From: a virus
Taxonomy: Duplodnaviria > Heunggongvirae > Uroviricota > Caudoviricetes
Length of the DNA: 47,797 bases
Direction: 5' to 3' (one strand)
IMG/VR virus record: IMGVR_UViG_2571042438_000008
The notes below the pieces were generated by a model. That model ran no database searches and had not been told where the DNA came from. It saw nothing but the letters and a program-made list of their open reading frames with translations. This document shows, piece after piece, positions 4,781-47,797 of the stretch (position 1 is the first letter of the stretch; each line of letters begins with the position of its first letter). The position numbers were made by a program, and so were the translations under genes.

Positions 4781-4861
4781 AAACAAAAAGCCCGCAGATA
4801 AATCTGCGGGCTTCTTGCGACATCCACGGAAAACCAACAACTAACCATGGGCGCCTCGACA
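4781..4861 (-). ncRNA. Candidate CopA-like antisense RNA of the repA leader (~80 nt)
   Basis: Minus-strand perfect -10 TATAAT (plus coords 4868-4873) with weak -35; minus-strand intrinsic terminator (10-bp GC-rich stem 4789-4812 followed by a U-run); lies inside a 16-bp inverted repeat of the leader (4823-4838 / 4875-4890). Confidence 0.45.
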
Positions 4862-4905
4862 ACTCCCATTATACGTTGGTTTTCCGTGGACGCAAGAGCG
4901 AACAT

Positions 4906-23199: not shown

Positions 23200-23275
23200 G
23201 GCCCCTTAGCTCAGTGGTTAGAGCAGGCGACTCATAATCGCACGGTCATCGGTTCAAATCCGGTAGGGGCCACCA
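23200..23275 (+). tRNA. tRNA with CAU anticodon (Met or Ile2/lysidine type), 76 nt including CCA
   Basis: Cloverleaf elements readable: acceptor GGCCCCT/AGGGGCC, D-arm AGCTCAGTGGTTAGAGC, anticodon loop CTCATAA, T-arm GGTTCAAATCC, 3' CCA; close to E. coli tRNA-Ile2 as recalled. Confidence 0.85.
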
Positions 23276-29445: not shown

Positions 29446-30036
29446 ATGGCTCTAAAAATCGAATATTTACCAGTCGGTAAGCTGCTCAGATATGCCAAAA
29501 ATTCACGGACTCATTCAGATGAGCAAGTTGAACAGTTGGTGAACAGTATCCGTGAGTTCGGTTTCACTAATCCTGTGCTGATCGATGAAAAGAATGAACT
29601 GATTGCGGGGCATGGGCGGCTTGCAGCAGCCGAAATTCTGGAAATGGATAAAGTTCCGGCGATTCGGTTGAGTAACCTTTCTGAAAAACAGAAGAAGGCG
29701 TACAGGATTGCAGATAACAAGCTGGCCTTAAATGCTGGCTGGGATATGCAGCTTCTGGCCGAAGAAGTCAAAGAGTTAATGGATGATGATTTTGATATTG
29801 ATCTGCTTGGGTTTAATGATGCAGAGCTTGACGAAATGTTAAGCGATGAACAGCCGCAGGAAGAAGACGATAATTCTTCCCCTGTTGTTCAAATTAAGTA
29901 CCTGGCTATTGATAAAGAACGTATTCCCGCGACGGATATGGAAATTGCATTGTTGCTGGATGTTTATCGTCAGTACCACGACGCGCATGAAACGCATGAG
30001 GGATTTGTTCAGTATCTTGCTAATGGTTGCAAGTAA
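29446..30036 (+). CDS. ParB N-terminal domain protein, paralog 2, immediately upstream of terminase
   Basis: LIDEKNELIAGHGRLAAAEILEMDKVPAIRL; clearly alignable with paralog 1 over the N-terminal ~110 aa by eye. Confidence 0.7.
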   Translation: MALKIEYLPVGKLLRYAKNSRTHSDEQVEQLVNSIREFGFTNPVLIDEKNELIAGHGRLAAAEILEMDKVPAIRLSNLSEKQKKAYRIADNKLALNAGWDMQLLAEEVKELMDDDFDIDLLGFNDAELDEMLSDEQPQEEDDNSSPVVQIKYLAIDKERIPATDMEIALLLDVYRQYHDAHETHEGFVQYLANGCK

Positions 30037-30587
30037 TGGCCATCGTCAGTAAGTCAGAGTTTGCCCGCCGGAAAGGTATTTCTCCGGCAATGGTTACGAA
30101 GCTCTGTCGTTCCGGTCGCATTCCAGTGCTGAAAAGCGGCAAGCTGGATTTTGATAAAGCCAGTGCGGCTTATGAAGCGAGCCGACAGGTTGGTCGTGAG
30201 GTATCTGCTGAAAATGGAAAAAGAGGGCATGGGATATCTTCGGAACAACCAGAGTTACCCGCTGATGATGCCGGATTAGCTGGTGGTACTTCCGGTGTTG
30301 CGGTGCAATTCAACAAGGCTAAGACCGCAGAAAAAATTTATCAGGCAAAGCTGAAACGCCTTGAATTTGAAGAAAAGGAAGGCTCTCTCATCGCTAAAGA
30401 TGCGGTCAGGGATGATGCATTTCTGGCAGCTAATGAATTGCGTAGCCGCTTATTTAGTATTGCTCCAAGAGCAGCTCCCCGTTGTGAAGGCAAAACAGCC
30501 AGGGAGATCGAACGCATTATTGAAGACGAGATTAATTTTGCGCTTCAGGCGCTCCAGGAATCCCGATTTATTAAGCAGGAAGAATAA
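30027..30587 (+). CDS. Terminase small subunit (Nu1-like, putative)
   Basis: N-terminal HTH-like SKSEFARRKGISPAMVTKLCRSGRIP; directly upstream of the large terminase; alternative start ATG 30036. Confidence 0.6.
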   Translation: MQVMAIVSKSEFARRKGISPAMVTKLCRSGRIPVLKSGKLDFDKASAAYEASRQVGREVSAENGKRGHGISSEQPELPADDAGLAGGTSGVAVQFNKAKTAEKIYQAKLKRLEFEEKEGSLIAKDAVRDDAFLAANELRSRLFSIAPRAAPRCEGKTAREIERIIEDEINFALQALQESRFIKQEE

Positions 30588-30592
30588 ACCTC

Positions 30593-32449: not shown

Positions 32450-32460
32450 AGGAAATATAA

Positions 32461-32700
32461 ATGAACAATGAAGCATTTTCTCTGACTGAAGCCAGAGAGA
32501 TGTTATCTGTCTGGCGGGAAGCATATCGCGCTATTGCTATTGGCGGTCAGTCATATAAATTTGGTACGCGGCAGTTAACTCGTGCGGATTTATCAGAAGT
32601 CAGAAAAGAGATGGATTACTGGCGTAATGAAGTAGAAAGATTATCAGCAGGTATACGCCGAGGCCCACGAATTAAACGAGTGGTGATAAGAGATTTATGA
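32461..32700 (+). CDS. Head-tail joining protein (lambda gpW-like)
   Basis: 79-aa ORF between terminase and portal, as in lambda. Confidence 0.5.
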   Translation: MNNEAFSLTEAREMLSVWREAYRAIAIGGQSYKFGTRQLTRADLSEVRKEMDYWRNEVERLSAGIRRGPRIKRVVIRDL

Positions 32701-34271
32701 ATATTCTTGATCGAGTTATTGCGCCGTTTTCACCTCAGAGGGCATTAAATCGAGCTTTGGCAAGAAAACGGTTAGAAGCACTTGAAGGTATTAATAACCT
32801 TGGATATTCACGTCATGGTGCAAGCACTCATAAAAAATCATTAAGGGGTTGGTTTAGTAAAGCTGGTTCTCCTGATGATGATATTGTTAAAAATATAGAT
32901 AAATTGCGTGAGCGTTCTCGTGATCTCTTCATGGGAAACCCGCTATCGGTTGGCGCAATAAAAACTATCAGGACAAACGTTGTTGGTTCCGGTTTAAAAC
33001 TAAATGCGAACATTGATGCCGATTTCTTGGGGATGACGCAGGAAGAAGCGCGAGCATGGGAAAAGCATGTTGAGCGTGAGTTTAGATTATGGGCTGATTC
33101 TCCAAATTGTGATGCATCAAGAATGTGTACTTTTGGACAATTGCAATCATTGGTCCAAATATCTGCGTTAACATCTGGCGATATATTTGCTGCGCTACCA
33201 GTTATTAAGCGTAAGGGTGTTATATATGATTTGTGCGTCTATTTAATTGAAGGTGATCGTGTTTGCAATCCAGAGGATCGTTTTATACCAAATCTTTACG
33301 GTGGCGTAGAGGTTGGTGAATTTAGCGAGCCTGTGGCGTACTGGGTTGCAAAACATCACCCAGCCGGGACTTCTGGTTTTGTAACCCGCAAGTGGGAACG
33401 TATTCCCGCATATGGGAGTAAAACAGGAAGAAGAAATATTCTGCATGTCATGCAGGATTTTGAAAGGCCTGGGCAACGCCGTGGCGTTCCTGTCCTTGCT
33501 CCTGTAATTGAAGCATTGAAGCAGTTAGGACGATACACCGATGCTGAATTGGTTGCTGCGGTTGTGTCAGGGATGTTTACTGTCTTTATTAAAACAGACG
33601 CTCCTGATGGGCCAGTCGGTGAATCGGGTATCCCTCAGTACGAGCAGATCGATAACCATGATGATAACACCCAAGAAATGGGGAATGGCTCCATAGTAAG
33701 TTTGGGTGAAGGTGAGTCGATAGATACAGCAAATCCCGGGCGACCAAATACGGCATTTGATGGTTTTGTTGTCGCCATATGCCGTCAAATTGGGGCTGCT
33801 TTAGAACTCCCTTACGAACTCTTGGTAAAGCATTTTACAGCAAGTTATAGCGCAAGCAGGGCCGCATTACTTGAAGCCTGGAAAATGTTCCGTATGCGAC
33901 GTGACTGGATGGTTCAGTCATTTTGCCAACCGATCTATGAGGAATGGTTGGCCGAAGCCGTTGCTAAAGGTCGTGTTATTGCCCCTGGTTTTTTTTATGG
34001 GCCTGAATATCGCGCTGCATGGAGTGGCGCTCAATGGTATGGCCCATCACAAGGCCAATTAGATCCCCTTAAAGAAGTCAAAGCTGCAAAACTGCGTGTT
34101 GAGGAAACATTCTCTACCCGTGAAAAAGAAGCGGCTGAAATGTCAGGTCTTAACTGGGAAGAAACCGCACAAATCTGTGGCAGAGAAGAGAATGCTCGCC
34201 GTGAGTTGGGGCTTATTACACCTCCTGTTTCTGAGGTAAATGAACAAAATATGGAGACTGATGATGCCTAA
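32697..34271 (+). CDS. Portal protein (lambda gpB-like)
   Basis: 524 aa; gene order and size. Confidence 0.8.
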   Translation: MNILDRVIAPFSPQRALNRALARKRLEALEGINNLGYSRHGASTHKKSLRGWFSKAGSPDDDIVKNIDKLRERSRDLFMGNPLSVGAIKTIRTNVVGSGLKLNANIDADFLGMTQEEARAWEKHVEREFRLWADSPNCDASRMCTFGQLQSLVQISALTSGDIFAALPVIKRKGVIYDLCVYLIEGDRVCNPEDRFIPNLYGGVEVGEFSEPVAYWVAKHHPAGTSGFVTRKWERIPAYGSKTGRRNILHVMQDFERPGQRRGVPVLAPVIEALKQLGRYTDAELVAAVVSGMFTVFIKTDAPDGPVGESGIPQYEQIDNHDDNTQEMGNGSIVSLGEGESIDTANPGRPNTAFDGFVVAICRQIGAALELPYELLVKHFTASYSASRAALLEAWKMFRMRRDWMVQSFCQPIYEEWLAEAVAKGRVIAPGFFYGPEYRAAWSGAQWYGPSQGQLDPLKEVKAAKLRVEETFSTREKEAAEMSGLNWEETAQICGREENARRELGLITPPVSEVNEQNMETDDA

Positions 34272-35328
34272 TTGGTGGGAAATAAAAAATAGCACGGGTG
34301 AAGATGACTCTCCGGCTGAACTTTTAATTTACGGGTATATTGGTGAATTTGATGAGGTTTCTTCTTCTGACATAGTTAATAAATTAAAGGATATTTCATC
34401 AAATACTATCAACGTAAAAATTAATAGTTATGGTGGTTCTGTTTTTACTGCTCAAGCTATTCTTTCATCATTAAAGCGTCATAAGGCGAATATTACGGTT
34501 TATATCGACGGGATTGCTGCATCGGCTGCAACTATTATTGCAATGGCGGGTGATAAAATTATTATCCCATCTAATGCTATGATGATGATCCATAATCCGT
34601 GGACATTTGCTGCTGGCGATGCGGATGAATTGCGTGATATTGCTGAGATGATGGATAAGATACGCAATAGTATTTTATCTGCATATAAGGAGAAAACAGG
34701 GCTTTCTGAGGATAAATTAATTGAACTAATGGATCAGGAAACATGGCTAAATGCAGAAGAGGCTGTAGAGCTTGGATTTGCTGACGAAGTTGAAAAACCA
34801 ATACGCTTATCCGCTTCTATAAAGGAAGGGATGCTTTCGCTTAATGGAATAACTTTTGAAGCATCAAGGTTTTCAAAATTACCTGATTCACTCGCAAAGT
34901 TGCCGCAAAATAAAAATGAGTTATCTACTGAATCAAATGAACAAAATGAGGACGATATTGTGACTCTTGATGAATTAAAAAATAAATATCCAGAATTATA
35001 CAATCAGGTTTTTAATGCTGGTAAAGACGAGGGCGTTAAATCAGAACGCGAGCGCATTGAAACAATCGAGAATAGCGTGATTCCTGGTCATGACGACCTG
35101 GTTAAGAATGCAAAATTCAAAACAGGAGTTTCTGCGGCTGAACTTGCTTTGGAAATTATGAATGCAGAGCGAGCGCGTAACAAAAACTTTCTTAATCAAC
35201 GGCAAGAAGACGCAAGTGAGGTGAATGATTCAGTTGATGTTAATCAACCAGAAAACAACGGCAACAAACAGGCTGAAGCAGTAAAAAATGTTATTGGGTC
35301 AGTATTTAAAAACCGCGATAAAAATTAA
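34240..35328 (+). CDS. Prohead protease / scaffold (S49 or ClpP-like, lambda gpC-like)
   Basis: KINSYGGSVFTAQAI ... IAASAATIIAMAGDKIII ... MMIHNPW is typical of the S49/ClpP fold; acidic C-terminal region. Confidence 0.75.
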   Translation: MNKIWRLMMPNWWEIKNSTGEDDSPAELLIYGYIGEFDEVSSSDIVNKLKDISSNTINVKINSYGGSVFTAQAILSSLKRHKANITVYIDGIAASAATIIAMAGDKIIIPSNAMMMIHNPWTFAAGDADELRDIAEMMDKIRNSILSAYKEKTGLSEDKLIELMDQETWLNAEEAVELGFADEVEKPIRLSASIKEGMLSLNGITFEASRFSKLPDSLAKLPQNKNELSTESNEQNEDDIVTLDELKNKYPELYNQVFNAGKDEGVKSERERIETIENSVIPGHDDLVKNAKFKTGVSAAELALEIMNAERARNKNFLNQRQEDASEVNDSVDVNQPENNGNKQAEAVKNVIGSVFKNRDKN

Positions 35329-35337
35329 GGTGAGTTT

Positions 35338-35721
35338 ATGCGAGAGTCTTTTTCATTTGAACCAGATAATCTGATTATTTCTGGTGGTATGCCAGCAATT
35401 CCAACAAGTATTAAACTTGCCAGCGGTAAAGTAAAACGGGGTGAGTTACTTGCTTTTGTCAGTATTGATCAGACAACAAATGTTGTCACTGTGGCGCCAA
35501 TAAATCTCTCTGGTGAAGGGGAGGCAAAAGAACCGTATTGTATCGCTCAACACAATATTGATGCGACTGATTCAGCGCAAGTTGGAACAGCATGGCTGAC
35601 CGGAATGTTCAATGCACATGCGGTTATCCTTCCTGAATCAGCAAAGATTGCCGATGTATATCTGGCTTGCCGGAAGGTTGGGATATTCCTTAATACCGCA
35701 CAACAAAATCCATCTGCATAA
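35338..35721 (+). CDS. Head decoration protein (gpD-like, putative)
   Basis: 127-aa ORF between protease and major capsid. Confidence 0.45.
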   Translation: MRESFSFEPDNLIISGGMPAIPTSIKLASGKVKRGELLAFVSIDQTTNVVTVAPINLSGEGEAKEPYCIAQHNIDATDSAQVGTAWLTGMFNAHAVILPESAKIADVYLACRKVGIFLNTAQQNPSA

Positions 35722-35741
35722 TATAAAGAGGTCGTATTTTT

Positions 35742-36785
35742 ATGCCGAATATTGATATTTTTGAACGACGTACAATGCTTGAGCCTGTTATTCAGAATTT
35801 CAAGGCTCGTCGTTTTCTTCTTCGTACCTTTTTTCCTGGTGTTCAGACCTTTAATACAAAGAAAGTTGATCTGGATTTTGTTCGCGGGGGCCGTACTATG
35901 GCTCCGTTTGTTGGTAAAGGTTTTGGCTCAAAAACCGTTGAGCGACGCGGCTTTGTAACGAGAACTCTGGAGCCACCACTTGTTGCACCTGATTTGGTAA
36001 CAACAGCCGAGCTGCTTTTAAACAGGCTTCCGGGTGAGAATATTTACAACGCAAAATCGCCAGAAGAACGAGCCGCCGAGCAATTAGGTAAAGATTTGCT
36101 TGAGCTTGATGAAATGGTTAACCGCCGTGAAGAATGGATGTGTGCACAAGTCTTGTTTACGGGGCAGGTTGATATTGTTGGTGAAGGAGTGGATGACACA
36201 GTTTATTTTTGGCCTGAAGAGGAAGGAGATAAACCATATCTTGAACTGACAGGTGATGATTTATGGAGTGCAGCAAAATCAGATCCGTTGGTCAATGTTC
36301 GCAACTGGAAACGTCGGGTATCACTAACTTCAGGTTTTACACCTCGTGTTGCCGTAATGGGCGCAAAAGTTGTTGATGCCTTCGTTAAAAATGAAGCAGT
36401 AACTAAATATCTTGATAATCGCCGAAAAGAGCTTGGGTATATTGAGCCTAAGGAGTTAGAAGAAGGCGTAACTCATTATGGCAATCTTGAAGGTGTCGAT
36501 TTTTATGGTTACGACGAACTTATTCGCAATGATAAAACAGGAAAACCAGAACCATTAGTACCGGAAGATAAGATCCTCTTTGGCTCTCCTGGTCGAGGAA
36601 CGATGCTGTATGGTGCTGTAGAGCTTGTAGATGACGCCGAAAAGACTCTAACGATTGTTGAGTCGCCACGAGTTCCAGACACCTGGGTAACTCGTAAGCC
36701 GGCTGGCCGTTATGTTGCCATGAAGTCATCTCCACTGCCTAATCCTGGTGTGGCTGATGCCTATCTGGTGGCTAAGGTGGTTTAA
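35742..36785 (+). CDS. Major capsid protein (lambda gpE family)
   Basis: N-terminal ARRFLLRTFFPG and C-terminal PDTWVTRKPAGR resemble gpE as recalled; 347 aa. Confidence 0.85.
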   Translation: MPNIDIFERRTMLEPVIQNFKARRFLLRTFFPGVQTFNTKKVDLDFVRGGRTMAPFVGKGFGSKTVERRGFVTRTLEPPLVAPDLVTTAELLLNRLPGENIYNAKSPEERAAEQLGKDLLELDEMVNRREEWMCAQVLFTGQVDIVGEGVDDTVYFWPEEEGDKPYLELTGDDLWSAAKSDPLVNVRNWKRRVSLTSGFTPRVAVMGAKVVDAFVKNEAVTKYLDNRRKELGYIEPKELEEGVTHYGNLEGVDFYGYDELIRNDKTGKPEPLVPEDKILFGSPGRGTMLYGAVELVDDAEKTLTIVESPRVPDTWVTRKPAGRYVAMKSSPLPNPGVADAYLVAKVV

Positions 36786-37178
36786 ATGGCCAGACTGATT
36801 AAAAACATTGATACGATAAGCCACGGCTCGCTAAAAGCGGGCCGTTTGCTTAATGGGCTAATGGATAACTCCAGAATTGCCGAACTGATTGCGTCAGGAC
36901 ATGCTATTGCCACCGAAGAGGATGGTGATTTGGCATCGGCTGGGGGCTATGATGCTGCTAAGTTAGCTTTTGAGCATGGATACGCATCTGCTGTTAATGA
37001 TGCTGTGGACGCAGGGTTGATTACGCGAACGGAGGCGGGTAGCTGTGTATTCGAGGTTGAGTTTGAGGATGATGGCGGCAATGAGGAAATGGTTGCTGAT
37101 GATTCATCTGAGTCTGTAGCTACTTCTGATACCAGTAATGCGAAAAAATCAACGCAAAAAAAAGGTAATAAGAAGTAA
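36786..37178 (+). CDS. Hypothetical head/neck protein with acidic C-terminus
   Basis: Position between capsid and tail genes. Confidence 0.35.
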   Translation: MARLIKNIDTISHGSLKAGRLLNGLMDNSRIAELIASGHAIATEEDGDLASAGGYDAAKLAFEHGYASAVNDAVDAGLITRTEAGSCVFEVEFEDDGGNEEMVADDSSESVATSDTSNAKKSTQKKGNKK

Positions 37179-37522
37179 TGAACTCCTTCAAAGAGGTTAT
37201 AGCGCAAGATATTTCTGCAATATTCCTCAATGAAAAAGAGTTTGCCGATACATATAACATAGACGGCAAGGATATCCTTGCCGTTATTGATACAGACCTT
37301 ATTCATGAGCGTAATAAACGCTCATATGCTGAGTTTGCAGAGGGAATAAATCAGGGGCAAATAATATTATTTGTTTCAAGAAAAGATTTTCCTGTTCTCC
37401 CTGTCAAAGACCAGTCAATGAAAATCAACGGTAAAAGTTATATTGTTGATGAAGTATCAGATAATGTTGGTGTATTGGAAATAACTCTCACTGTTAATAC
37501 TAACAGAGGAATGCCGATTTGA
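37178..37522 (+). CDS. Putative head-tail connector/adaptor
   Basis: Position and size only. Confidence 0.3.
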   Translation: MNSFKEVIAQDISAIFLNEKEFADTYNIDGKDILAVIDTDLIHERNKRSYAEFAEGINQGQIILFVSRKDFPVLPVKDQSMKINGKSYIVDEVSDNVGVLEITLTVNTNRGMPI

Positions 37523-38004
37523 TTAATCTTTTGATAGATGCAATAAAAAATCGGTTGGAACATGAGGTTTTCCATGATTTATTAGTGCAGGGGCCTCCTT
37601 ATGATGAAACAGACAGCGATATTAAATTGTTTGTTCCAACAATATTTAAAGGGTACTTGCCTCCTAAATCACAACCATCTCCAGATAAACCGCCAGAATT
37701 TCCTCATGTGATTATCAGACCCACGGAAGGAGGAATGCAGCCTGAAACGGATGAAGTTAAGGTTAAGTTTCTTCTAGGTGGTTTTTGTGAGGACCATACT
37801 GGGTATGAATGGGTAATGGCTCTTCTTGAAAGGATGATGTTTCATTTTCAGGAGAAGCCTTTACTTGAAGAGAAATTTCTCTTTCAGGGTGATATCAGAT
37901 GGCGAATGTTTGATGATCAACCATATCCATATTGGATAACGGAAGCAACTGGAACGTGGCTAGTATTAAAGCCTCAGAATATTCAGTCTCAGGAGTTTAT
38001 CTAA
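37519..38004 (+). CDS. Putative tail completion/neck protein
   Basis: Position and size only. Confidence 0.3.
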   Translation: MINLLIDAIKNRLEHEVFHDLLVQGPPYDETDSDIKLFVPTIFKGYLPPKSQPSPDKPPEFPHVIIRPTEGGMQPETDEVKVKFLLGGFCEDHTGYEWVMALLERMMFHFQEKPLLEEKFLFQGDIRWRMFDDQPYPYWITEATGTWLVLKPQNIQSQEFI

Positions 38005-38295
38005 ATGGCTAATAAGAAAAGTAGTAAAGAAGATATAGAAAAGAAGGAAGATGTTGCTCAAACATTTGTATATATAGGACCAACAATCCCTCAACTCTCA
38101 ATTTTGAAGCATAAACTATTTAAGAATGGCTTATCTCCAGAGTGTGAAAAATTAATATCACATATTCCTGGTGCAAAGTGTTTGTTTGTGGCAACCAGTG
38201 ATTTTGCAGATGCAGAAAAAAGACTTTCTGATAAAACCAGTGTCGAGTATGTAATGTACTCTAGAGTTTCTTCTTCTATCATGGAGATTAAATAA
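38005..38295 (+). CDS. Hypothetical protein
   Basis: 96-aa ORF preceding the sheath gene. Confidence 0.3.
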   Translation: MANKKSSKEDIEKKEDVAQTFVYIGPTIPQLSILKHKLFKNGLSPECEKLISHIPGAKCLFVATSDFADAEKRLSDKTSVEYVMYSRVSSSIMEIK

Positions 38296-39758
38296 TGGGA
38301 TATCGCCACGGTATTTATATATCTGAGCTGGCTACATCTATAACTCCTCCAGTACAAGTTAGTGCTGGGTTGATTGTCGCATTTGGTACAGCTCCTGTTA
38401 ATCAGTTAGAAGATCCAGCCTCAGCGGTAAATAAACCTATCATTGCTTATACATACGCAGAGGCCGTATCTAAAATAGGATATAGCACAAACTTCGAGAA
38501 ATATACTTTAAGCGAAGTAATTAAAGTCGCATTTGGAATATATGGTGTTGCGCCAGTTGTATTTATCAATGTGCTTGATCCAGCAAAGCATAAGAAAGAC
38601 GTAACTGATGAGGTAGTAAAACTTTCTGGCGGGAAAGGTACGCTCTCTAACGATGGTGTCTTATATAAATCTGTTGTTGTGAAAAAAGCAGATGGTGATT
38701 CGGCAGGGTTAACGGTTGATACCGATTATGTGCTGGCGCTGGATGATAATGGCTATACGGTCATTACCGCTATTAGCGGAGGAAAAATTACCGAAAAAGA
38801 CGCTACTCTTAAGGTTAGTTATACACATCTTGATCCCGGTGCCGTAACTAAAAATGACATTATCGGTGGTGTGGATTCCAACACTAAAGCCAATACAGGG
38901 CTTGAGTTACTGTCTGATGTGTATCCCCGCTTCAAGTTGGTTCCTGGACAAGTGATTGCGCCTGGATTTAGTTCTGATAGTGAAGTTGGTCAGCTAATGG
39001 CGGCTAAAGCCGCGTTGATTAGTGAATTGTTCAAAGCAGAAGCCATAACTGATGCACCGACCGATAAATCTACTATCAGTGATTACTCGGCTGTTCCTGA
39101 ATGGAAACAGAACAATAATCACATGGCCGCTAACCAGACAGTGTGCTGGCCGATGGTGAAACTTGGTGACAATATTTACCATCACTCAACCCATTTAGCG
39201 GCCGCAACATGCTTGCTGGATAGTCAGTATGGCGATATTCCATCACGTTCTCCGTCAAATATAAAACTACAGATGGACGGTGCTGTACGTAAAGATGGCA
39301 GTGAAGTATGGCTTAACATTAGCCAGGCAAACTACTTAAATGGACAGGGGATTGTAACAAGCCTTAATTTTGATGGTTGGAAATCATGGGGAAACCGTAA
39401 TGCTATTTATCCAACATCTACAGACCCCAAAGACGCATTTCGTGTTTGCCGACGTATGTTTAACTGGGTGGGTAATACGTTAATTCTTTCGCATTGGTCA
39501 AAAATAGACAATCCTGCAAACCGTCGATTAATTGAATCGATTGTTACAAGTGCGAATATTTGGCTTAACGGCCTCACAGGTAATCAGGATATTGCAGGTG
39601 GTGTTGTTACCTTTGATCAGTCTGAAAACACGATTACGTCATTGATGGACGGGATTGTTAAATTCCATGTAAAAATGACACCATTCTCACCTGCCAGAGA
39701 TATAGAGTTCGTCATGGAATATAATCCTGATTATCTGCTGAACTTGTTTTCTGAATAA
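38295..39758 (+). CDS. Tail sheath protein
   Basis: 487 aa; precedes tube and chaperone/tape-measure genes. Confidence 0.75.
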   Translation: MGYRHGIYISELATSITPPVQVSAGLIVAFGTAPVNQLEDPASAVNKPIIAYTYAEAVSKIGYSTNFEKYTLSEVIKVAFGIYGVAPVVFINVLDPAKHKKDVTDEVVKLSGGKGTLSNDGVLYKSVVVKKADGDSAGLTVDTDYVLALDDNGYTVITAISGGKITEKDATLKVSYTHLDPGAVTKNDIIGGVDSNTKANTGLELLSDVYPRFKLVPGQVIAPGFSSDSEVGQLMAAKAALISELFKAEAITDAPTDKSTISDYSAVPEWKQNNNHMAANQTVCWPMVKLGDNIYHHSTHLAAATCLLDSQYGDIPSRSPSNIKLQMDGAVRKDGSEVWLNISQANYLNGQGIVTSLNFDGWKSWGNRNAIYPTSTDPKDAFRVCRRMFNWVGNTLILSHWSKIDNPANRRLIESIVTSANIWLNGLTGNQDIAGGVVTFDQSENTITSLMDGIVKFHVKMTPFSPARDIEFVMEYNPDYLLNLFSE

Positions 39759-39774
39759 ATAATAGGAGGTTGCT

Positions 39775-40296
39775 TTGAGCAATCAAATTCCTGAGAGACT
39801 TATTAACTTTACAGTATACGGTGAGGGAAACCGTATTATCGGTGTTGCTGACGCAAAGCTGCCATCAATTGAGATGATGACAGAAACTGTTAGTGGTGCA
39901 GGTATCGCTGGAGAGCTTGATAGCGGAACGCTGGGGCATTTCAAACCAATGACTGTCTCTCTTAAATGGCGAACTCTGACCTCTGCTGGTACAAAATTAT
40001 TTCTATCCTCATCGCATCAGGTAGATTTTCGCGGTAGCCAGCAGGTTTATGATGCCGGAACAGGAAAATATAAAACGGTTCCTATTCGAGCTTCAATGAA
40101 GCTAAATCCTAAAAAACTGGATTTGGGTTCGCTACAGGTAGCAAAGGCCACTGATTCAGAAAATGAATTCGAAGTTCTCTATATCAAATTATTTATTGAT
40201 GGGAAAGAAGTCTTAGAAATTGATAAGTTGAACTTTATTTGTATCTTTGATGGCGAAGATATATTAAAAACTGTTCGTGATGATTTAGGTTTATAA
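39775..40296 (+). CDS. Tail tube protein
   Basis: 173 aa; between sheath and chaperone. Confidence 0.65.
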   Translation: MSNQIPERLINFTVYGEGNRIIGVADAKLPSIEMMTETVSGAGIAGELDSGTLGHFKPMTVSLKWRTLTSAGTKLFLSSSHQVDFRGSQQVYDAGTGKYKTVPIRASMKLNPKKLDLGSLQVAKATDSENEFEVLYIKLFIDGKEVLEIDKLNFICIFDGEDILKTVRDDLGL

Positions 40297-40305
40297 GGTG
40301 AAAAA

Positions 40306-40587
40306 ATGGAAACCGTTAAATTAAGTAAAGAATATCGTTTTGAAGACTTTGAGCCAGTGACTGAACTCAACCTTGATTTAGACAACCTAAAAGGCAGTGA
40401 TATTTTAGAGGTATCGGACTTACTGCAATCTCAAGGGCATGTTTCAGTTCAAACATCACTTGATAATAAAGTCCATGCAGCCTTGGCTGCTCGCTGTATT
40501 GGTCGTCCAATAGAGTATCTGAATGGATTACCAGCGAAAGACTTTGTTAAAGTTTGTCAAAAGGTACAGAATTTTTTGCTCTCGTAG
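40306..40587 (+). CDS. Tail assembly chaperone (gpE/gpG-like), frame-0 product
   Basis: Small acidic protein directly upstream of the tape measure gene; slippery T_TTT_TTG at 40572-40578. Confidence 0.6.
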   Translation: METVKLSKEYRFEDFEPVTELNLDLDNLKGSDILEVSDLLQSQGHVSVQTSLDNKVHAALAARCIGRPIEYLNGLPAKDFVKVCQKVQNFLLS

Positions 40588-40736
40588 GTTTTGATGAGCA
40601 AAAACCTATTGATAAGCAAATAATGAGGGCCGCGAGTTCTCTATCTCAATCATCTCAATCAACACCTATATCCTACTGGCTTTCGCTTCGGTTGAGGCGA
40701 ATCGTCGCATGGATTGACGTGTTTAATGAGGATTAA
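40554..40736 (+). CDS. Tail assembly chaperone -1 frameshift extension (gpE+E'/gpGT-like)
   Basis: Overlapping -1 frame ORF continuing from the slippery heptamer to 40736. Confidence 0.45.
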   Translation: MSKGTEFFALVGFDEQKPIDKQIMRAASSLSQSSQSTPISYWLSLRLRRIVAWIDVFNED

Positions 40737-40741
40737 TACTA

Positions 40742-43534
40742 ATGGCCAGCAATAAGAACTTTAAGCTGGCTTTTGAAATTGGCGGCAAAGTTGCCGCCTC
40801 TCTCCCCAAAAGTTTTACTACAGCTAATCAGGCTGTTGCTAAATTAAATGCCGAGCTTGCTGGATTAACGAAAGAACATGGGGAAATTCAAAAGCTACAA
40901 TCTGTAAAAGTAAAGGTTGGACAGACTGCCCTCGAATATCATAAAGCTGCCGCTCGCGTTGAAGAGTTACAGAAGCAAATAAAAAACACGGCCAATCCAA
41001 CCAGAGCGATGCTTCGTGACTTTGAGAAGGCAAAAACACATTCATCGAATTTACGAGCATCACTACGTTCTCAGCGTGAAGAACTGGCCGCTTTAAAGTC
41101 TGCCTATCAGGGAGCTGATACATCTGCCAGAGCTTTGGCCTCAAGAGAGAAAGAGCTTAAAGCCAGCATTGATCGTAATCGTGAGGCTCAGGCCCGTAGC
41201 GTTGAGCAGGTTAACCGCTACAGAACGGCTTTGGCTTTAGCCAGAGCAAATGTTCAGCAAGTGAAAAAACAGCAGGAGGAACTTAACCGGGCATTAGAAA
41301 AACAACGTATTGATAAAATTAACAGCTATAAAAATGCGTTGGCTGAAGCACGGAAAAATGTTCTTGCAGTAAAACGTGCTCAGGAGGAGTTAAACCGCGC
41401 GTTGGAAAGGCAGCGTGAATTGAAGCGAGAGCATCTTGGTGAGGCAAAGAGTCAACTTGTAAGGTCAGGATTACAAACTGGTGCTGTAGCGGCTGGTGCA
41501 TTTGCTGCTGCTAACAATGCAGCAAATTTCAATCGTGAAAACAAAATGATTGGTCTTACGGCAGATATGAAGCCGGAAGAAGTTCAGGCGATGGGGCAGG
41601 CGATGCTTGTTACCGGAACGGCTACCAACCAGTTTGCATCTGATATTCAGGCCGCTCAGGGTTTTCTCGTCGCTGCTGGGCAGGATTATAAAGAGGCTCA
41701 GGCGAATCTACTAACTATTGGGCGAACAGCTACAGCTACTGGCTCTGATATCCTCGATGTCTCGAAAGCATCATTTACATTAAGTGACTCATTGAAGATT
41801 GATCCATCTCAAATGAAGTCTGCAATGGGGATTCTGGTTCAGGCAGGGAAAGAGGGGAACTTTGAATTTAAAGATATGGCCAAAAATCTTCCTGTGCTTG
41901 GTGCTCAGTTCCAGGCATTAAAAATGGGAGGTAAAGAAGCAGCCGCGACGATGGGTGCAGCTTTGCAGATAGCTCGCAAGGGGGCTGCAACTTCGGATGA
42001 GGCTGCTAATAATATGAACAACTTTTTGGCAAAAATACTTTCCCCTGAAACACTAAAAAAAGCAAAGAAAAATTTCGGTGTAGATTTATATAAAATTGTT
42101 ACAACAGCGCAGAAAAAAGGGAAGAATCCATTCGAAGCTGCAATGCATTCTGTCATGAAAATGACTAAGAACGGAGATCAGAAGTTACTTGGTGAACTAT
42201 TTGGCGATATGCAGGTTCAGAACTTTGTTCGTCCGATGATTCAAAACTGGAAGGAATACCAGAGAATCAAAGCAACATCTCTTGGAGCTGGAAGTGCTGT
42301 TATTGACCGCGATTTTGCCAACATAACGAAAGATAATGCGGAGCGATTGAAACAATTACGTATTCAGGCTAGCAATGCATCATTAAGTTTTGGTCAGGCC
42401 TTGCAACCTGCTTTGAATGCCGCGCTTAGTGTTTTGGTTCCGCTGATTACAAAAATTAGTGAATTTGTAGCTAACAACCCCAATTTTGTGTCTCAGATAG
42501 TGATGGCGGCAGGTGCGTTTCTAACCATGAAAAGTGTGGTTATAGCGTGTAGGGTAGCTATGCTGGCTTTATCTGTAGCGACAAAGCTAACACCCTTCGG
42601 GTGGATTCAGATGGCTATATCTGCGCTGGTTGCCGCAGGAATATTGCTCTATCAGAATTGGGATAAGATCAGAGATTATGCTGTCAGAGTTTGGCCTTCT
42701 GTTAAGGAATATACAGTTAAATCATTTGAGGCTATAAAAAACTTTATCTTAAACTTTGACCTCAATGGATGGATTATATCTATGTTTGGTAAAGCATGGG
42801 ATTATCTTTCCAACATAAACTGGAGTTCGGCAGGTGTAAGAATTTACAGTACATTAATTAGTGCTTTTAAATGGATGTCTCCGCTTCCGTTCTTAATTAA
42901 AGCATTTAAAATTACAACAAATTACCTTTCTGGCATTAACTGGAGCGAAACAGGAAAGAAAATCATAGATACACTGGTATCTGTTTTTATGCGTTTTTCA
43001 CCAGTTGGACTCTTTATAAGAGCATTCCAATCTGTAACGACTTATTTATCTGGAATAAACTGGAGTGAGTCAGGCGCAAAAATAATTGAGACGTTAATCA
43101 CTGGGATAAAATCAAAAGCAAATGCTTTAATTAATGAAGTGAAAGGCGTTTTTTCTTCTGTACGTGAGTATTTACCGTTCTCTGACGCGAAAAAAGGTCC
43201 ATTCTCACAGCTAACAAAGTCAGGTGGTGCAATAATGACTACTCTGGCATCAGGTGTTAGCAGGAATAACAGCTTACAGAATGCAATAGCAAGCAAGTTC
43301 GGGCAATCAAATTTATCACCTCACGGGATATCTGCCGCCGGGACTTCTGGACCTCGCCAGAACGTTAACGCTGTGACTGGTGGAATAACCTATTCACCTG
43401 TAATCAATCTTCCGGCTGGTTCACCAAAGGAAACTGAGGCGGCAGCTAAAAGAGCATTAGATGCGGGATATTCTGATTTTGAGAAGAAATTGAGTGCTCA
43501 TATGTTCCAACAACGGAGATTAAGTTTTGGATGA
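40742..43534 (+). CDS. Tail tape measure protein
   Basis: 930 aa; long coiled-coil-like N-terminal half, hydrophobic segments, repeated W-containing motifs (GINWSE). Confidence 0.85.
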   Translation: MASNKNFKLAFEIGGKVAASLPKSFTTANQAVAKLNAELAGLTKEHGEIQKLQSVKVKVGQTALEYHKAAARVEELQKQIKNTANPTRAMLRDFEKAKTHSSNLRASLRSQREELAALKSAYQGADTSARALASREKELKASIDRNREAQARSVEQVNRYRTALALARANVQQVKKQQEELNRALEKQRIDKINSYKNALAEARKNVLAVKRAQEELNRALERQRELKREHLGEAKSQLVRSGLQTGAVAAGAFAAANNAANFNRENKMIGLTADMKPEEVQAMGQAMLVTGTATNQFASDIQAAQGFLVAAGQDYKEAQANLLTIGRTATATGSDILDVSKASFTLSDSLKIDPSQMKSAMGILVQAGKEGNFEFKDMAKNLPVLGAQFQALKMGGKEAAATMGAALQIARKGAATSDEAANNMNNFLAKILSPETLKKAKKNFGVDLYKIVTTAQKKGKNPFEAAMHSVMKMTKNGDQKLLGELFGDMQVQNFVRPMIQNWKEYQRIKATSLGAGSAVIDRDFANITKDNAERLKQLRIQASNASLSFGQALQPALNAALSVLVPLITKISEFVANNPNFVSQIVMAAGAFLTMKSVVIACRVAMLALSVATKLTPFGWIQMAISALVAAGILLYQNWDKIRDYAVRVWPSVKEYTVKSFEAIKNFILNFDLNGWIISMFGKAWDYLSNINWSSAGVRIYSTLISAFKWMSPLPFLIKAFKITTNYLSGINWSETGKKIIDTLVSVFMRFSPVGLFIRAFQSVTTYLSGINWSESGAKIIETLITGIKSKANALINEVKGVFSSVREYLPFSDAKKGPFSQLTKSGGAIMTTLASGVSRNNSLQNAIASKFGQSNLSPHGISAAGTSGPRQNVNAVTGGITYSPVINLPAGSPKETEAAAKRALDAGYSDFEKKLSAHMFQQRRLSFG

Positions 43535-43745
43535 TTATAGAACGGTTCAAGGGGACTCATGGGATAGTATCGCTTTAAAGTTGTATGGTAATGAGTACCT
43601 GTCTTATCTTCTTATTGATGCTAATACTGAGCACCGCTTTACGGTGCTTTTTTCTGCGGGAATTATTCTTAAAGTTCCTGATGCTCCGGTTATGCCAATA
43701 TCAGTAAACAATTTTCCTCCGTGGAGACGCAATAGTGTTACGTAA
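43527..43745 (+). CDS. Tail protein X (LysM-like, P2 gpX-like)
   Basis: 72 aa; YRTVQGDSWDSIALKLYG resembles gpX/LysM. Confidence 0.55.
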   Translation: MDDYRTVQGDSWDSIALKLYGNEYLSYLLIDANTEHRFTVLFSAGIILKVPDAPVMPISVNNFPPWRRNSVT

Positions 43746-44736
43746 AACGCTTTTTGATGTTATATATCAGAATGTAAATATTACCGCTCATATGTCACCT
43801 GATGTTTTGTCAATGTCTTATACAGATAATGAAGATGGTCAGGTCGATGATATTTCTATTATATTAAAAAATGATGATGGGAAATGGTCTGGAGACTGGA
43901 CACCTAAAAAGGGTGATTTTATTGATTTGAGCTTTAAGCCTATAAATCAAATCGTCCTTGAGTGCGGGAAATTCCAGGTAGATGGCATAACTTGCTCTGG
44001 ACCACCTTCTGTGGTTGAGGTAACTGCTGTTTCTGTTCCTATTTCATCAGGCATTAGACGTGATTTAAAAAGTAATGCATGGGAAAAAACAACTCTTAAA
44101 GATATAGCAACTTCTATAGCTAAATTAGCTAACCTTGAACTGTTGTTTCTTATTGATGGTGATAGTAATCCATATTATGCACGTGAAGATCAAATGGAGG
44201 AAAGCGATTTAAAATTTCTCCATCGACTTTGCCAGGATGAAGGGTTGTCGTTAAAGGTCACTGATAGCCAATTAATAATATTTGCTCAAGAGATGTTTGA
44301 GCAAAAAGATCCTATCGCTACGCTTACGTTAGGTATTGATGAGATAATCAGATATAGCTTTAGCACACAATCTACAGATTTGTATAAAAGTTGCACGTGC
44401 AAATATCGCGTACCTAAAAAAAGAAAGTCGCTTTCGTATACTTGGGTAGATCCATCCGTAGAAGAAGGGTCGAATCTTAAGATAAGAAAACTGGTAGCTA
44501 ATTTAGATGAAGCAAAACGTAAGGCAAAGGCTGCTTTGCGGCTTAAAAATAGATATCAAAATACCGGATCTTTAGTATTGGTTGGAGACACCAGATTGGT
44601 AGCTGGTGTAACTATAAATCTGGAGGGATTCGGTTCATTTTCTGGAAAATATCTTATATCGAAAGCTGTGCATTCAATTGGGACTAGTGGTTATACCACC
44701 TCGATTGATGTCCGAAGAGTAATTAATGGGTATTAA
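43735..44736 (+). CDS. Baseplate hub / late control D-like protein (P2 gpD-like)
   Basis: 333 aa; position after gpX-like; central EESDLKFLHRLCQDEGL resembles the gpD family as recalled. Confidence 0.65.
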   Translation: MLRKTLFDVIYQNVNITAHMSPDVLSMSYTDNEDGQVDDISIILKNDDGKWSGDWTPKKGDFIDLSFKPINQIVLECGKFQVDGITCSGPPSVVEVTAVSVPISSGIRRDLKSNAWEKTTLKDIATSIAKLANLELLFLIDGDSNPYYAREDQMEESDLKFLHRLCQDEGLSLKVTDSQLIIFAQEMFEQKDPIATLTLGIDEIIRYSFSTQSTDLYKSCTCKYRVPKKRKSLSYTWVDPSVEEGSNLKIRKLVANLDEAKRKAKAALRLKNRYQNTGSLVLVGDTRLVAGVTINLEGFGSFSGKYLISKAVHSIGTSGYTTSIDVRRVINGY

Positions 44737-44738
44737 TT

Positions 44739-45359
44739 ATGAATGATTTAGAAACATTATTACGTCAGACTATAAGAGTTGGCGTTGTTTCTGATATTGA
44801 TGATGGTGATGTTACAGCAAGAGTTACTTTCGATGATCAGGATAACGTCACTTCGGCAAAGTTATCAGTTATTGTGAAAAATACAGATAAGAATGCTGAT
44901 TACTGGATGCCAGATATTGGTGAGCAAGTTTTGTGTATCTTTCATCCCGCGGGGCCGCAACAAGGTTTTATTCTTGGTAGTTTTTATGATGAAACACAGA
45001 AGCCGCCATCTAATACTGTTAATAAACGCGTCATTAGATTTAATAACGGAACTCGTATTGAGATAGACAGAGAATCTAATTTACTCCTTGTTGATGCTGT
45101 CGGAGATGTAACCATTAAGGCTACAGGAACCGTAACTATTGATGCTCCAGAAACCATCATTACCGGAAATGCTACAGTTGAAGGATTACTAACCTTCAAA
45201 GGTGGAATGAAAGGATCTTCTGCTGGAGGTGTTGCAGCTACAATTTCTGGGAATGTTAAGGTTGTTGGTGGTGATATAGATGTTGATGGGATTAAATCTA
45301 AAGGCCACCATCACACAGCTCAGGGGGAATACGCTCCGACAACGGAGGCTCAGGCATGA
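44739..45359 (+). CDS. Baseplate spike (P2 gpV-like)
   Basis: IGEQVLCIF motif and Gly-rich C-terminal beta-helix-like repeats. Confidence 0.65.
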   Translation: MNDLETLLRQTIRVGVVSDIDDGDVTARVTFDDQDNVTSAKLSVIVKNTDKNADYWMPDIGEQVLCIFHPAGPQQGFILGSFYDETQKPPSNTVNKRVIRFNNGTRIEIDRESNLLLVDAVGDVTIKATGTVTIDAPETIITGNATVEGLLTFKGGMKGSSAGGVAATISGNVKVVGGDIDVDGIKSKGHHHTAQGEYAPTTEAQA

Positions 45360-45823
45360 TTGTGGGTATGCTTGGTACAATGCCTTTTGTTGCCTCATCA
45401 ATAGTGGTGAATACGTTCAACAATTTTAAAAGGACGTCAAAGCGTCGTGTAGCGCGCCATGATGTTATTGGGCTTAAACCTGTTCTGGAGGATATAGGTC
45501 CAGATCTGGATGAAGTTAGTTTTAATATGCGGTTGGATACAACACTTGGCATTGTTCCATTGGCTGCGCTTTCATTACTTAGGACAATGCAATCAATTCA
45601 GGAAGTAAATCCTGTTGTAATTGGTATTCAGTATTTTGGTAATTTTATAATTACAGATATAGAGGAATCATGGACTTATTTCGGTCCAACTGGGAATCCA
45701 CGAGTGATTATCGTCGGCATTAAATTACAGGAAGTCGGACAGACCTCTCTGAAAGAAGCATTAGTTGATATTGCTGGCAATATAGAGTCAAAAACTAGAA
45801 GTGCGTTAGGTAAATTATTATGA
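45356..45823 (+). CDS. Baseplate-associated protein (uncharacterised)
   Basis: 155-aa ORF between gpV-like and gpW-like genes. Confidence 0.4.
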   Translation: MIVGMLGTMPFVASSIVVNTFNNFKRTSKRRVARHDVIGLKPVLEDIGPDLDEVSFNMRLDTTLGIVPLAALSLLRTMQSIQEVNPVVIGIQYFGNFIITDIEESWTYFGPTGNPRVIIVGIKLQEVGQTSLKEALVDIAGNIESKTRSALGKLL

Positions 45824-46140
45824 ATAATACGTTTACCATATCATCACCTTCTTACTCGATTGATTGGTCGCCCAAAACAGTTGTAGAAGAAGTTTTGCAA
45901 AATGTCTCTACTATTATTAATACTCAAATTGGCACTGTACCATATGCCAGAAAATTAGGAATTAATTCAAGTCTTGTTGATAGCCCTAGTCCAATTTTTA
46001 TTGCTACAGCAACACGAGAAATAATTCAAAAAATTAGTGAGTTTGAGCCTAGAGCGATTATCCATTCTGTTACTTTTGAAAGAACGGACGTTTCTGATGG
46101 TTTTATTAGGCCAAAACTTGTGATAGGAGTTAGAGAATGA
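45820..46140 (+). CDS. Baseplate wedge protein (GPW/gp25-like)
   Basis: 106 aa; position before gpJ-like. Confidence 0.55.
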   Translation: MNNTFTISSPSYSIDWSPKTVVEEVLQNVSTIINTQIGTVPYARKLGINSSLVDSPSPIFIATATREIIQKISEFEPRAIIHSVTFERTDVSDGFIRPKLVIGVRE

Positions 46141-47261
46141 CGTTGCCGCGTGGTGGTTTGCCAGATATTACTTTCGCAGATTCTAACCCGACTGATATAA
46201 CAACTCGTTCAATCAGGGCTTTTGAGAGTATAACAGGTGAAACATTAGCACCTGCTGATCCACGTAGATTATTCATCTTATCATTGTGTGAGATTATTAT
46301 ACAGCAAAGAAAAGCTATCGATTTTTCTGCAAAACAAAACCTTCTTACATATGGTGAAGGTGAATATCTCGACCATATAGGCTATCTGACGGATACGCCT
46401 AGGCTGGAAGCTCAATCTGCCTTGACTACATTTGAGTTTAATCTGTCAACAAAATTATCGGGGATATATACAATACCTGCTGGCACTCAAGTTTCAACTG
46501 GAAATGGTGTTATTTTCCAAACAGATATTTTGTTGGAAATACCTGCTGGGAAAACAGTTGGTACAGTCTCAGGATATGCTGTTATACCTGGTTTATCTGG
46601 GAATGGCTTTTTACCAGGGCAAATAAATGAGTTGGTGACTCCGTTGCCGTATGTTTCCAGCGTAAGGAATGTAACAACATCTAATTCTGGTGCTGATACG
46701 GAGTCAGATGATAATTATGCTGAAAGAATAAAACTGTCGCCGGAAAAACTGTCTACAGCAGGGCCGGAGGATTCTTATAAATATTGGACAAGAACAGCCA
46801 ATCAGAATATAAAAGATGTGAATGTATATACACCATCGCCCGGAATTGTAGAAATCCGTTCTTTGTTAGAGAACGGAGATATACCTTCTAATGAACTATT
46901 AGAGCAGATAAATAGCGTTCTCTCTGCAACTAATATTCGACCATTCACAGATAAAGTTCTTGTTAAGAAACCAGAGAGCATTGAATACGATATAATAATT
47001 AAATACTGGATTAACTCATCGGACAAAAACAGAACAACTTTAATTCAAAGTGAGGTTGAGAAAGCTATTGATGAGTATAAACAATGGCAACGTTCGGTTA
47101 TGGGAAGAGATATAAATCCAGATGAAATTATTCAACGTTTAAAAAATGCTGGGGCTAAAAGATTAGAAATATCAAGTCCTGTTTTTACTGTGATTGGAGA
47201 GACACAGGTCGCCAGAGAGAGAAATATAAATTGCCAGTATGCGGGGTTAGAGGATGGCTGA
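46137..47261 (+). CDS. Baseplate protein J-like
   Basis: 374 aa; position before gpI-like and tail fiber. Confidence 0.7.
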   Translation: MTLPRGGLPDITFADSNPTDITTRSIRAFESITGETLAPADPRRLFILSLCEIIIQQRKAIDFSAKQNLLTYGEGEYLDHIGYLTDTPRLEAQSALTTFEFNLSTKLSGIYTIPAGTQVSTGNGVIFQTDILLEIPAGKTVGTVSGYAVIPGLSGNGFLPGQINELVTPLPYVSSVRNVTTSNSGADTESDDNYAERIKLSPEKLSTAGPEDSYKYWTRTANQNIKDVNVYTPSPGIVEIRSLLENGDIPSNELLEQINSVLSATNIRPFTDKVLVKKPESIEYDIIIKYWINSSDKNRTTLIQSEVEKAIDEYKQWQRSVMGRDINPDEIIQRLKNAGAKRLEISSPVFTVIGETQVARERNINCQYAGLEDG

Positions 47262-47797
47262 TATCTTTAATGTTAGCTTGTTGGATGTTTTACCTCCTAA
47301 CTTAGCTAGCGATCCCAACGTGATAGCTATGTCGAAAGCTATTGATGATGAACTACAAGCAATTAACAATTTAATATATAAGACAGAAATATATAGCGTT
47401 GTTGATAACCTGGACTCAGTTGTTCTCGATCATTTAGCTTGGCAATGGAATGCTGATACATGGAGGGATAGTTGGCCTGTATTGTTAAAGCGTTCTGTTT
47501 TTAAATCAATAATACGAACAAAGCGAATAAAGGGTACAAGGGCAGCGGTTGAAGATGTAGTAAATAGCTTGGGTGGAGAGGTAAACATAACAGAATGGTT
47601 TGAAACATCACCACCTGGCGAACCATATACAGCCTCAATTGTTGCTTCGATTAACTCTTTTGATGGTGCTGTTCCTTCGAAAGAGATGTTGGAGGATACG
47701 TTAAGAAGTATCAAGAGTGCAAAGTCGGCAAGAACACTATTTACATTTTCGCAAGCAACCAATGTTTCAGGTGGTGTTGGTATTGTCGGTGCTTTCC
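47254..47797 (+). CDS. Baseplate gpI-like protein, 5' part (open at window end; continues at 1..289 through the terminal duplication)
   Basis: ATG 47254 overlapping the gpJ-like stop; ORF not terminated within the window; frame matches 23..289. Confidence 0.65.
   Translation, partial: MADIFNVSLLDVLPPNLASDPNVIAMSKAIDDELQAINNLIYKTEIYSVVDNLDSVVLDHLAWQWNADTWRDSWPVLLKRSVFKSIIRTKRIKGTRAAVEDVVNSLGGEVNITEWFETSPPGEPYTASIVASINSFDGAVPSKEMLEDTLRSIKSAKSARTLFTFSQATNVSGGVGIVGAF
47547..47797. repeat. Terminal direct repeat: 47547..47797 is identical to 1..251
   Basis: Read directly: both begin ggttgaagatgtagtaaatagc and end gtcggtgctttcc. Confidence 0.9.

Follow-up and report, generated by a model that had tools for sequence, protein, structure and literature searches.

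The window analyzed here is a stretch of 47,797 nucleotides, corresponding to a circular phage-plasmid of approximately 47.8 kb. It carries a contractile-tail module in which the genes for sheath, tube and chaperone, an open reading frame (ORF) in the -1 frame and the tape measure gene follow one another in this order, all on the plus strand. The tail sheath gene (487 aa, 38295..39758; phrog_23 tail sheath, E=8.6e-96) precedes the tail tube gene (173 aa, 39775..40296; PF04985 Phage_tube, FII, E=9.8e-44). A Shine-Dalgarno-like AAGGTG at 40295..40300, read from the sequence, is located 5 nt 5' of the ATG that opens the frame-0 chaperone gene at 40306. This gene (40306..40587) encodes 93 aa with the C-terminus ...CQKVQNFLLS and ends with the stop codon TAG at 40585-40587. 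The tape measure protein gene (930 aa, 40742..43534; PF10145, E=1e-20; phrog_28, E=9e-109) starts with ATG at 40742, 5 nt after the end of the -1 ORF, and its Shine-Dalgarno GAGGA (40728..40732, likewise read from the sequence) lies within the final codons of that ORF. Further 3', genes for an X-like hub protein, a gpD-like protein and V/W/J-like baseplate proteins are found; the order of the tail genes (tape measure, X-like, D-like, V, W, J) is Mu-like and not P2-like, and the head genes, for a major capsid protein E and a decoration protein, are lambda-like.

The -1 frame is open from 40551, following its last stop codon TAA at 40548-40550, to TAA at 40734-40736, which is 149 nt past the chaperone stop. 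A shift from frame 0 into this frame must therefore fall into the overlap zone 40551..40587, and the only slippery heptamer in register within this overlap is T_TTT_TTG at 40572..40578. The 0-frame codons at this position are AAT (40570), TTT (40573), TTG (40576), CTC, TCG and TAG; thus, the heptamer is in the X_XXY_YYZ register, with TTT (Phe90) in the P site and TTG (Leu91) in the A site, and it is followed by two sense codons, the stop being the third codon 3' of the heptamer. The +1/-2 frame is shut 7 nt beyond the chaperone stop, which rules out a -2 shift of the Mu type; because this frame is closed, only a -1 shift can yield an extension in the window. The predicted fusion, join(40306..40578, 40578..40736), is 143 aa long, its -1 part (40578..40736) consisting of 52 codons, ALVGFDEQ...VFNED, followed by TAA. 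Tandem slippage would give ...VQNFL|ALVGFDEQKPIDKQIMRAASSLSQSSQSTPISYWLSLRLRRIVAWIDVFNED. An earlier note, made from the letters of this DNA, had placed a chaperone ORF at 40306..40587, a T_TTT_TTG heptamer at 40572-40578, three codons before its stop, and an overlapping -1 ORF running to 40736, just before the tape measure gene; all these coordinates check out.

The assignment of the frame-0 product was examined with sequence profiles and a structural model. The match to PF10109 (Phage_TAC_7) is a marginal pass (25.4 bits versus a cutoff of 25.0, E=1.5e-5) and covers positions 1-78 of the 79 in the profile; the match to phrog_3140, 'tail assembly chaperone', has E=8.7e-43. An AlphaFold (AF2) model of the chaperone has a pLDDT of 80 and consists of a beta-hairpin and four helices; a Foldseek comparison of this model with BFVD returned predicted viral tail and tape-measure chaperones (best E=1.8e-8, TM 0.87). 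Neither the PDB sequence search nor the Foldseek search of PDB produced a solved relative. In RefSeq, the identical chaperone gene is named 'phage tail assembly protein'. Judged from these matches, the ORF at 40306..40587 is a tail assembly chaperone, the analogue of G or E, as the earlier note had it. The -1 part taken alone matches phrog_30074 (E=4.4e-32), and we regard it as the analogue of T or E'. The phrog_3140 alignment runs unbroken over the frame junction and includes residues 1-137 of the fusion. NCBIfam contains a model neither for the window fusion nor for P2 E+E'.

It should be noted that the count of the motif in the window carries no signal. There are 18 copies of TTTTTTG, compared with 21.4 +/- 4.1 expected from shuffles, so that the motif is not over-represented, and, given the base composition, a random frame stays open for 52 codons with P of about 0.04. 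The position of the heptamer is more specific. Among the mechanical ORFs of at least 80 aa on both strands, there are 90 in-register X_XXY_YYZ heptamers, and only one of these, the site under study, is located at most 10 codons from the stop and is followed by a -1 frame without a stop codon over the next 90 nt or more. The decisive support is comparative, that is, it comes from the position of the heptamer and from its conservation in related sequences, and not from the number of motifs.

Close relatives, with 70-96% aa identity, were taken from two kinds of source, namely viral contigs and the assemblies of Hafnia, Klebsiella, Symbiopectobacterium and others; a scan of viral contigs for close relatives yielded near-identical loci only. 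The nucleotide alignment of the chaperone gene comprises 12 sequences (70-100% aa identity) and is ungapped. TTTTTTG is the longest invariant nucleotide run of the gene in this alignment. Only 11 of the 93 third-codon positions are invariant gene-wide (12%), whereas inside the heptamer all three are. Codon 89 is AAT, AGT or CGT, encoding N, S or R, respectively, with the third base T throughout the 12 relatives. Similarly, Phe90 is always TTT and Leu91 is always TTG, whereas TTC and five other Leu codons occur elsewhere in the gene. This pattern of conservation shows selection on the nucleotides of the heptamer and not on the protein that they encode.

Selection on a run of six T could, in principle, act on transcription instead of translation. 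If RNA polymerase added one U on the T6 run, the same -1 frame would be read downstream and the same fusion would be produced, with the junction ...NFF-ALVG... and the peptide VQNFFALVGFDEQK; the homopolymeric run is present and invariant, and sequence alone separates neither route from the other. However, the run is exactly six nucleotides long in 20 lineages, where it is flanked by A, G or C on the 5' side and by G, A or C on the 3' side, whereas selection for transcriptional slippage would favour longer runs and would need no fixed register. Efficient slippage by bacterial RNA polymerase generally needs about 8-9 or more A or T. Furthermore, the record of phage P2 assigns an identical site to translational frameshifting. 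We consider transcriptional slippage quite improbable at this site and infer that the slippage is ribosomal.

The -1 extension itself shows the signs of a protein-coding sequence. In all intact close relatives, T_TTT_TTG occupies the same codons and the -1 ORF comprises 52-59 codons; the end of this ORF ranges from 5 nt 5' of the tape measure start to an overlap of 32 nt with it (L037). Pairwise dN/dS values for the extension are between 0.08 and 0.33, and its variable columns are distributed over codon positions 1, 2 and 3 as 29, 17 and 43. Across seven relatives, no stop codon is found within the extension in the -1 frame, compared with 2-8 in the other frames. These values are those expected of purifying selection, and we conclude from them that the extension is constrained at the protein level. 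The earlier note had made its case depend on conservation of the -1 ORF in relatives; this comparison has now been run, and in every intact relative the ORF is open, of similar length and under purifying selection, with the heptamer invariant.

Coding capacity of the -1 frame would also be conserved if this ORF were a separate small gene that used a start of its own, either TTG 40554 or ATG 40623-40625 (the latter giving 37 aa), and no fusion were made. Indeed, codon 16 of the extension is a conserved Met, and some annotators have called a small ORF in this region: a 37-aa entry exists in nr, the phrog_30074 protein is 62 aa, and gp19 of KLER1-1 and gp16 of Lily are further examples. Conversely, the conserved internal ATG is not preceded by a Shine-Dalgarno (GATAAGCAAATAATG), and the 15 codons 5' of it are open in all relatives, with the G, P, D and Q residues kept. 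A single 37-aa call covers the -1 region in a database of 5.8 billion protein clusters. A gene with its own start would leave the invariance of TTTTTTG and the obligatory third-base T of codon 89 unexplained, and the phrog_3140 chaperone profile is continuous over the junction. Such a separate gene therefore appears very improbable. A frameshift in the overlap agrees with what is characteristic of the G/GT type (Xu, Hendrix & Duda 2004), namely overlapping ORFs between the tube and tape measure genes, an in-register slippery site in the overlap, and a downstream ORF that is coding but has no start of its own.

The two-frame layout is not confined to the window. Of 5426 complete E. coli genomes, 71 contain the G/T region, and each of its 75 occurrences is on a plasmid of about 47-49 kb; the region is also carried by three Yersinia phages and by the Escherichia phages vB_EcoM-613R2 and vB_EcoM-473R2. 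The layout is identical in the 71 genomes and in these five phage isolates, and it also occurs in lineages of two phyla. These observations bear on the suggestion that the overlap is non-functional, i.e., that the two frames overlap by chance, that a sequencing error is responsible or that what was once a single 143-aa gene has recently become a frameshifted pseudogene; the chance-level motif count and the existence of degraded relatives would agree with this suggestion. The degraded relatives are uninformative about the site: in one (L010), the -1 ORF is short, but this prophage is truncated directly after G and has no tape measure gene, and two others (L029 and L030) have stop codons inside G itself and are degraded copies. 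Given the identical layout and the purifying selection on the -1 frame, the chance or pseudogene reading is effectively refuted by the sequence comparison, with a probability close to nil.

Distant relatives were identified using tblastn and a scan of genome contigs, the latter yielding two loci, in Blautia and Agathobacter. The heptamer is T_TTT_TTG in Vibrio phage X29 (G identity 45%), Pararheinheimera KLER1-1 (35%), Acinetobacter HFM1 (34%) and Paenibacillus phage Lily (37%), T_TTT_TTC in Faecalibacterium phage Epona (37%), and T_TTT_TTA in the Blautia and Agathobacter prophages (about 34-37%). In all seven, the T6 run keeps its register, lies at the homologous S/N-F-L position and is followed by a -1 extension of 146-164 nt. 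In six of them, the extension ends beside the tape measure gene; in the seventh, HFM1, the next annotated tape-measure-like gene begins about 370 nt beyond it. A motif, TP(I)xYW(L)S(L)xL, is common to the T parts of this wider family. X29 is the nearest relative found in which a frameshift has been annotated (SBVcX29_0050/0049, RefSeq NC_024369.2): T_TTT_TTG likewise lies two sense codons before the stop, and the 164-nt -1 extension contains the TPIxYW motif, whereas the host is a different one and the linker is divergent. The RefSeq annotation describes the two products as analogues of lambda gpG and gpGT with a joined CDS, an assignment that, as far as the record shows, was made by analogy too.

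This distribution raises the question of whether the site is older than the lineages that carry it. The slip site may be ancestral and family-wide, with T6N fixed at the last PF10109 column and with lineage-specific stimulators, such as the hairpin described below, tuning the G:GT ratio; it would then have been retained in myophages of both Proteobacteria and Firmicutes while protein identity fell to about 15-35% and the T domain diverged beyond Pfam recognition. We give this scenario an even chance. If it is true, the family would be a natural series for long retention of a heptamer and for tuning of efficiency without a conserved stimulator.

Sequences that might stimulate frameshifting were sought around the heptamer. 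A fold of the 50 nt after the heptamer contains a candidate hairpin at 40584..40609, with a 9-bp stem (GUAGGUUUU/AAAACCUAU) and an 8-nt loop, separated from the heptamer by a 5-nt spacer (z=-1.9 in the window and -3.7 in the relative L006). For four of eight relatives, this hairpin is not the minimum free energy structure, and P2 lacks it. Hairpin cells are paired in 75% versus 70% in shuffles (6/500), with two compensatory cells, a count that is biased in that the structure was derived from the window sequence. The RNAalifold covariation term is only -0.86 kcal/mol, and RNAalifold gave no well-supported conserved structure near the site. In a 201-nt fold (z=-3.5), the nearest hairpin pairs the heptamer with GAGCAAAAA; it is not conserved and was rejected as a stimulator. 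On the 5' side, an SD-like AAGGT is located 6 nt upstream of the heptamer; its presence is confounded by the conserved K-V codons. The spacing of this AAGGT differs from the one, of about 10 nt, that favours the -1 shift in dnaX. The hairpin at 40584..40609, only slightly better than shuffles and conserved in part, is a candidate, and the search gave no convincing stimulatory element near the slip site.

Taken together, the sequence comparisons and the analogy to known phages point to a programmed -1 ribosomal frameshift at T_TTT_TTG in the chaperone gene of this contractile-tailed phage-plasmid, with a probability of roughly 0.9. This interpretation builds on the anatomy of the locus, the family membership of the G part, selection on the nucleotides of the heptamer and selection on the protein encoded by the -1 extension, all established by comparison of sequences. 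The majority of ribosomes would read 40306..40587 and produce the 93-aa chaperone. A minority would slip on U_UUU_UUG, where the P-site tRNA-Phe, paired with UUU, and the A-site tRNA-Leu, paired with UUG, would both re-pair one base 5', on UUU and UUU; these ribosomes would then read the -1 frame for 52 codons to TAA 40734-40736, producing the 143-aa GT or E+E' analogue. Tandem slippage would result in the junction ...VQNFL-ALVGFDEQ...VFNED and the junction peptide VQNFLALVGFDEQK, whereas a slip in the P site only would give ...NFF-ALVG... and VQNFFALVGFDEQK. By analogy to lambda G/GT and P2 E/E+E', both products are expected to coat the tape measure protein, and the rarer fusion would recruit tube subunits through its additional C-terminal domain; the frequency of slippage would set a fixed ratio of the two products, and neither protein would be found in the virion. 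How efficient the shift is, and how G and GT would divide their tasks in this phage, we infer from those systems.

The value of the site is mainly in annotation. Three GenBank or RefSeq records of close relatives, ON470591, OR545053 and NZ_AP022164, do not annotate the fusion, and positions 40588-40741 (154 nt) appear in them as an intergenic gap; no fusion is named in the feature lists of the other close matches, and a frameshift is likewise not mentioned in the publication on the 613R2 prophage. Sequence conservation and the analogy to known phages indicate that 40588-40741 codes for the C-terminal domain of a tail assembly protein that is probably essential, and the proper annotation of this protein would be a joined CDS with ribosomal slippage. 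The site is an unannotated example of a well-known system, i.e., ordinary biology, and it leaves what is known about frameshifting and tail assembly unchanged. It adds a clean comparative example to the P2-type T6G class, in which this heptamer occupies one and the same profile column all the way from Enterobacteria to Firmicutes.

The arrangement can be compared to those of lambda, Mu and P2. The predicted arrangement of the window resembles that of lambda in the N-terminus shared by the two products, in a -1 slip shortly before the end of the first ORF and in a site located just before the tape measure gene, and it differs in that the tail of lambda is non-contractile and no sequence similarity to the window is detectable. 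The heptamer of lambda is G_GGA_AAG. In lambda, the tape measure is bound both by G and by the G portion of GT, whose T domain attaches to the major tail subunit (Levin, Hendrix & Casjens 1993; Xu, Hendrix & Duda 2004, 2013, 2014; as summarised in PMC5009743); the G:GT ratio is approximately 30:1, and neither chaperone is found in virions (PMC5009743). The efficiency of frameshifting is about 3-4% in lambda and 2-3-fold higher at P2-type sites (PMC5009743). The similarity to Mu gp41 (Mu_41/Mu_56) includes PF10109, described as 'E, or 41 or 14', the position between the tube and tape measure genes and a similar order of downstream baseplate genes; the verified shift in Mu, however, is -2.

With P2, the correspondence is in the position of the chaperone gene and in the slip site rather than in overall sequence. 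A pairwise BLAST of the window fusion and P2 E+E' is not significant (E=4.5), and BLAST and hhalign comparisons of the fusion family with P2 E+E' gave nothing significant beyond the slip-site helix. The T part of the window does not match PF06528 (Phage_P2_GpE) at E<=10, compared with 76 bits for P2 E+E', and none of 10 T parts (the window and nine diverse relatives) matches this family. The hhalign match to P2 E' is weak (E=0.018, probability 2.5%) and is limited to the C-terminal L..L..W helix. As far as these profile searches reach, the -1 extension is outside the P2 E' family PF06528. The 0-frame stop also differs in position, following the heptamer after two sense codons in the window and after six in P2. 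The P2 site, which is backed by experiment according to its GenBank record and secondary citations, whereas that of the window is predicted from sequence and analogy, was reported by Christie et al. 2002 as the T6G site of the FETUD operon and is conserved in P2-like phages (PMC3931495). The P2 record (AF063097) lists gpE, 91 aa, and gpE+E', 142 aa, the latter with the description 'shares amino terminus with gpE; -1 frameshift; essential tail protein', and the sizes of the products are near-equal to the 93 and 143 aa of the window. In both phages, the chaperone lies between the FII-type tube and tape measure genes, and the extension ends at the start of the tape measure gene. The P2 slip site, GGT TTT TTG, contains an identical T_TTT_TTG in the same register and with the same -1 direction. 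The slip-site Leu is residue 91 in the window and residue 85 in P2 gpE, and both residues, as well as that of the Blautia homologue, align with position 78 of the 79 in PF10109; because the two sites occupy the same profile column, they are positionally homologous. The gpG/gpGT or E/E' arrangement proposed in the earlier note is thus borne out by synteny and by the identical heptamer of P2 at the homologous column. By conservation and by this analogy, the slip site of the window very probably yields a longer second protein, in the ordinary G/GT (P2 E/E+E') arrangement of long-tailed phages.

The window is a circular phage-plasmid of approximately 47.8 kb, and not an integrated prophage. Using the region of the tail assembly chaperone gene (G) and its -1 frame extension (T) as the query, 75 matches were found in E. 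coli, in 71 of 5426 complete genomes; all 75 are located on plasmids of ~47-49 kb, and there is no chromosomal copy among them. The window encodes a RepA-like protein (4777..5754), a ParA-like protein (12783..13451, minus strand) and a CI-like repressor (14054..14710, minus strand). The sister plasmid NZ_AP022164.1 encodes RepA and a toxin-antitoxin pair of the RelE/ParE type, in addition to three ParB-like genes, and is classified in PLSDB as non-mobilizable, without a replicon type.

Some of the IMG/VR relatives are degraded: in L010 (2780..3000), the phage sequence ends a few dozen nucleotides past the G stop codon, and the tape measure gene is absent, while L029 and L030 (2501..2780) contain premature stop codons within G. 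The window has an intact ORF of 399 aa (9976..11175, minus strand) that matches phrog_8244 over its full length; its N-terminal region is of the Ant/ORF6N type, and its C-terminal region is Rha-like. In the annotation of NZ_AP022164.1, a Rha-family CDS adjoins an ORF6N-domain CDS that is a partial pseudogene; we infer that this pair is the putative counterpart of the window ORF, disrupted in the sister.

The single tRNA gene (23200..23275, plus strand) was identified by ARAGORN as tRNA-Met with the anticodon CAT, whereas the tRNA that PGAP annotates at the corresponding position of the sister plasmid, flanked by lysis genes on one side and an MT-A70 methyltransferase on the other, is tRNA-Ile. 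This gene may encode a lysidine-type tRNA-Ile2, reading AUA. Phages of Pectobacterium and Erwinia carry tRNAs with 87-89% identity to it.

The 154-nt stretch 40588..40741, which encodes the greater part of the fusion chaperone's T domain, has no annotation in the three close-relative records inspected (RefSeq (PGAP) and GenBank). Within the T coding region, ~40 nt upstream of the tape measure start, there is a strong 8-bp hairpin, UUCGCUUC-GGUU-GAGGCGAA (40682..40701, plus strand), which is the dominant element of a 201-nt fold (z=-3.5) and shows compensatory changes among relatives at two inner pairs. A role as a frameshift stimulator is excluded because the distance from the slip site, ~100 nt, is too great; the hairpin might instead affect coupling to tape measure translation.

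An A8 run (37156..37163, plus strand) is found in a structural-module gene of 130 aa (ORF 36786..37178), where an in-register A_AAA_AAA (37157-37163) lies four codons upstream of the stop codon. A -1 slip at this heptamer would reach a TAA almost immediately and, therefore, extension is impossible; this heptamer is probably incidental.

The virion module (29446..47797 and 1..3783) is a mosaic of a lambda-like head and a contractile tail. The lambda-like head genes encode the large terminase, portal, ClpP-type protease, decoration protein and E-type major capsid protein. The tail proteins resemble those of P2 (FI, FII, X, D, V, W, J and I), yet the order of the tail genes is Mu-like.
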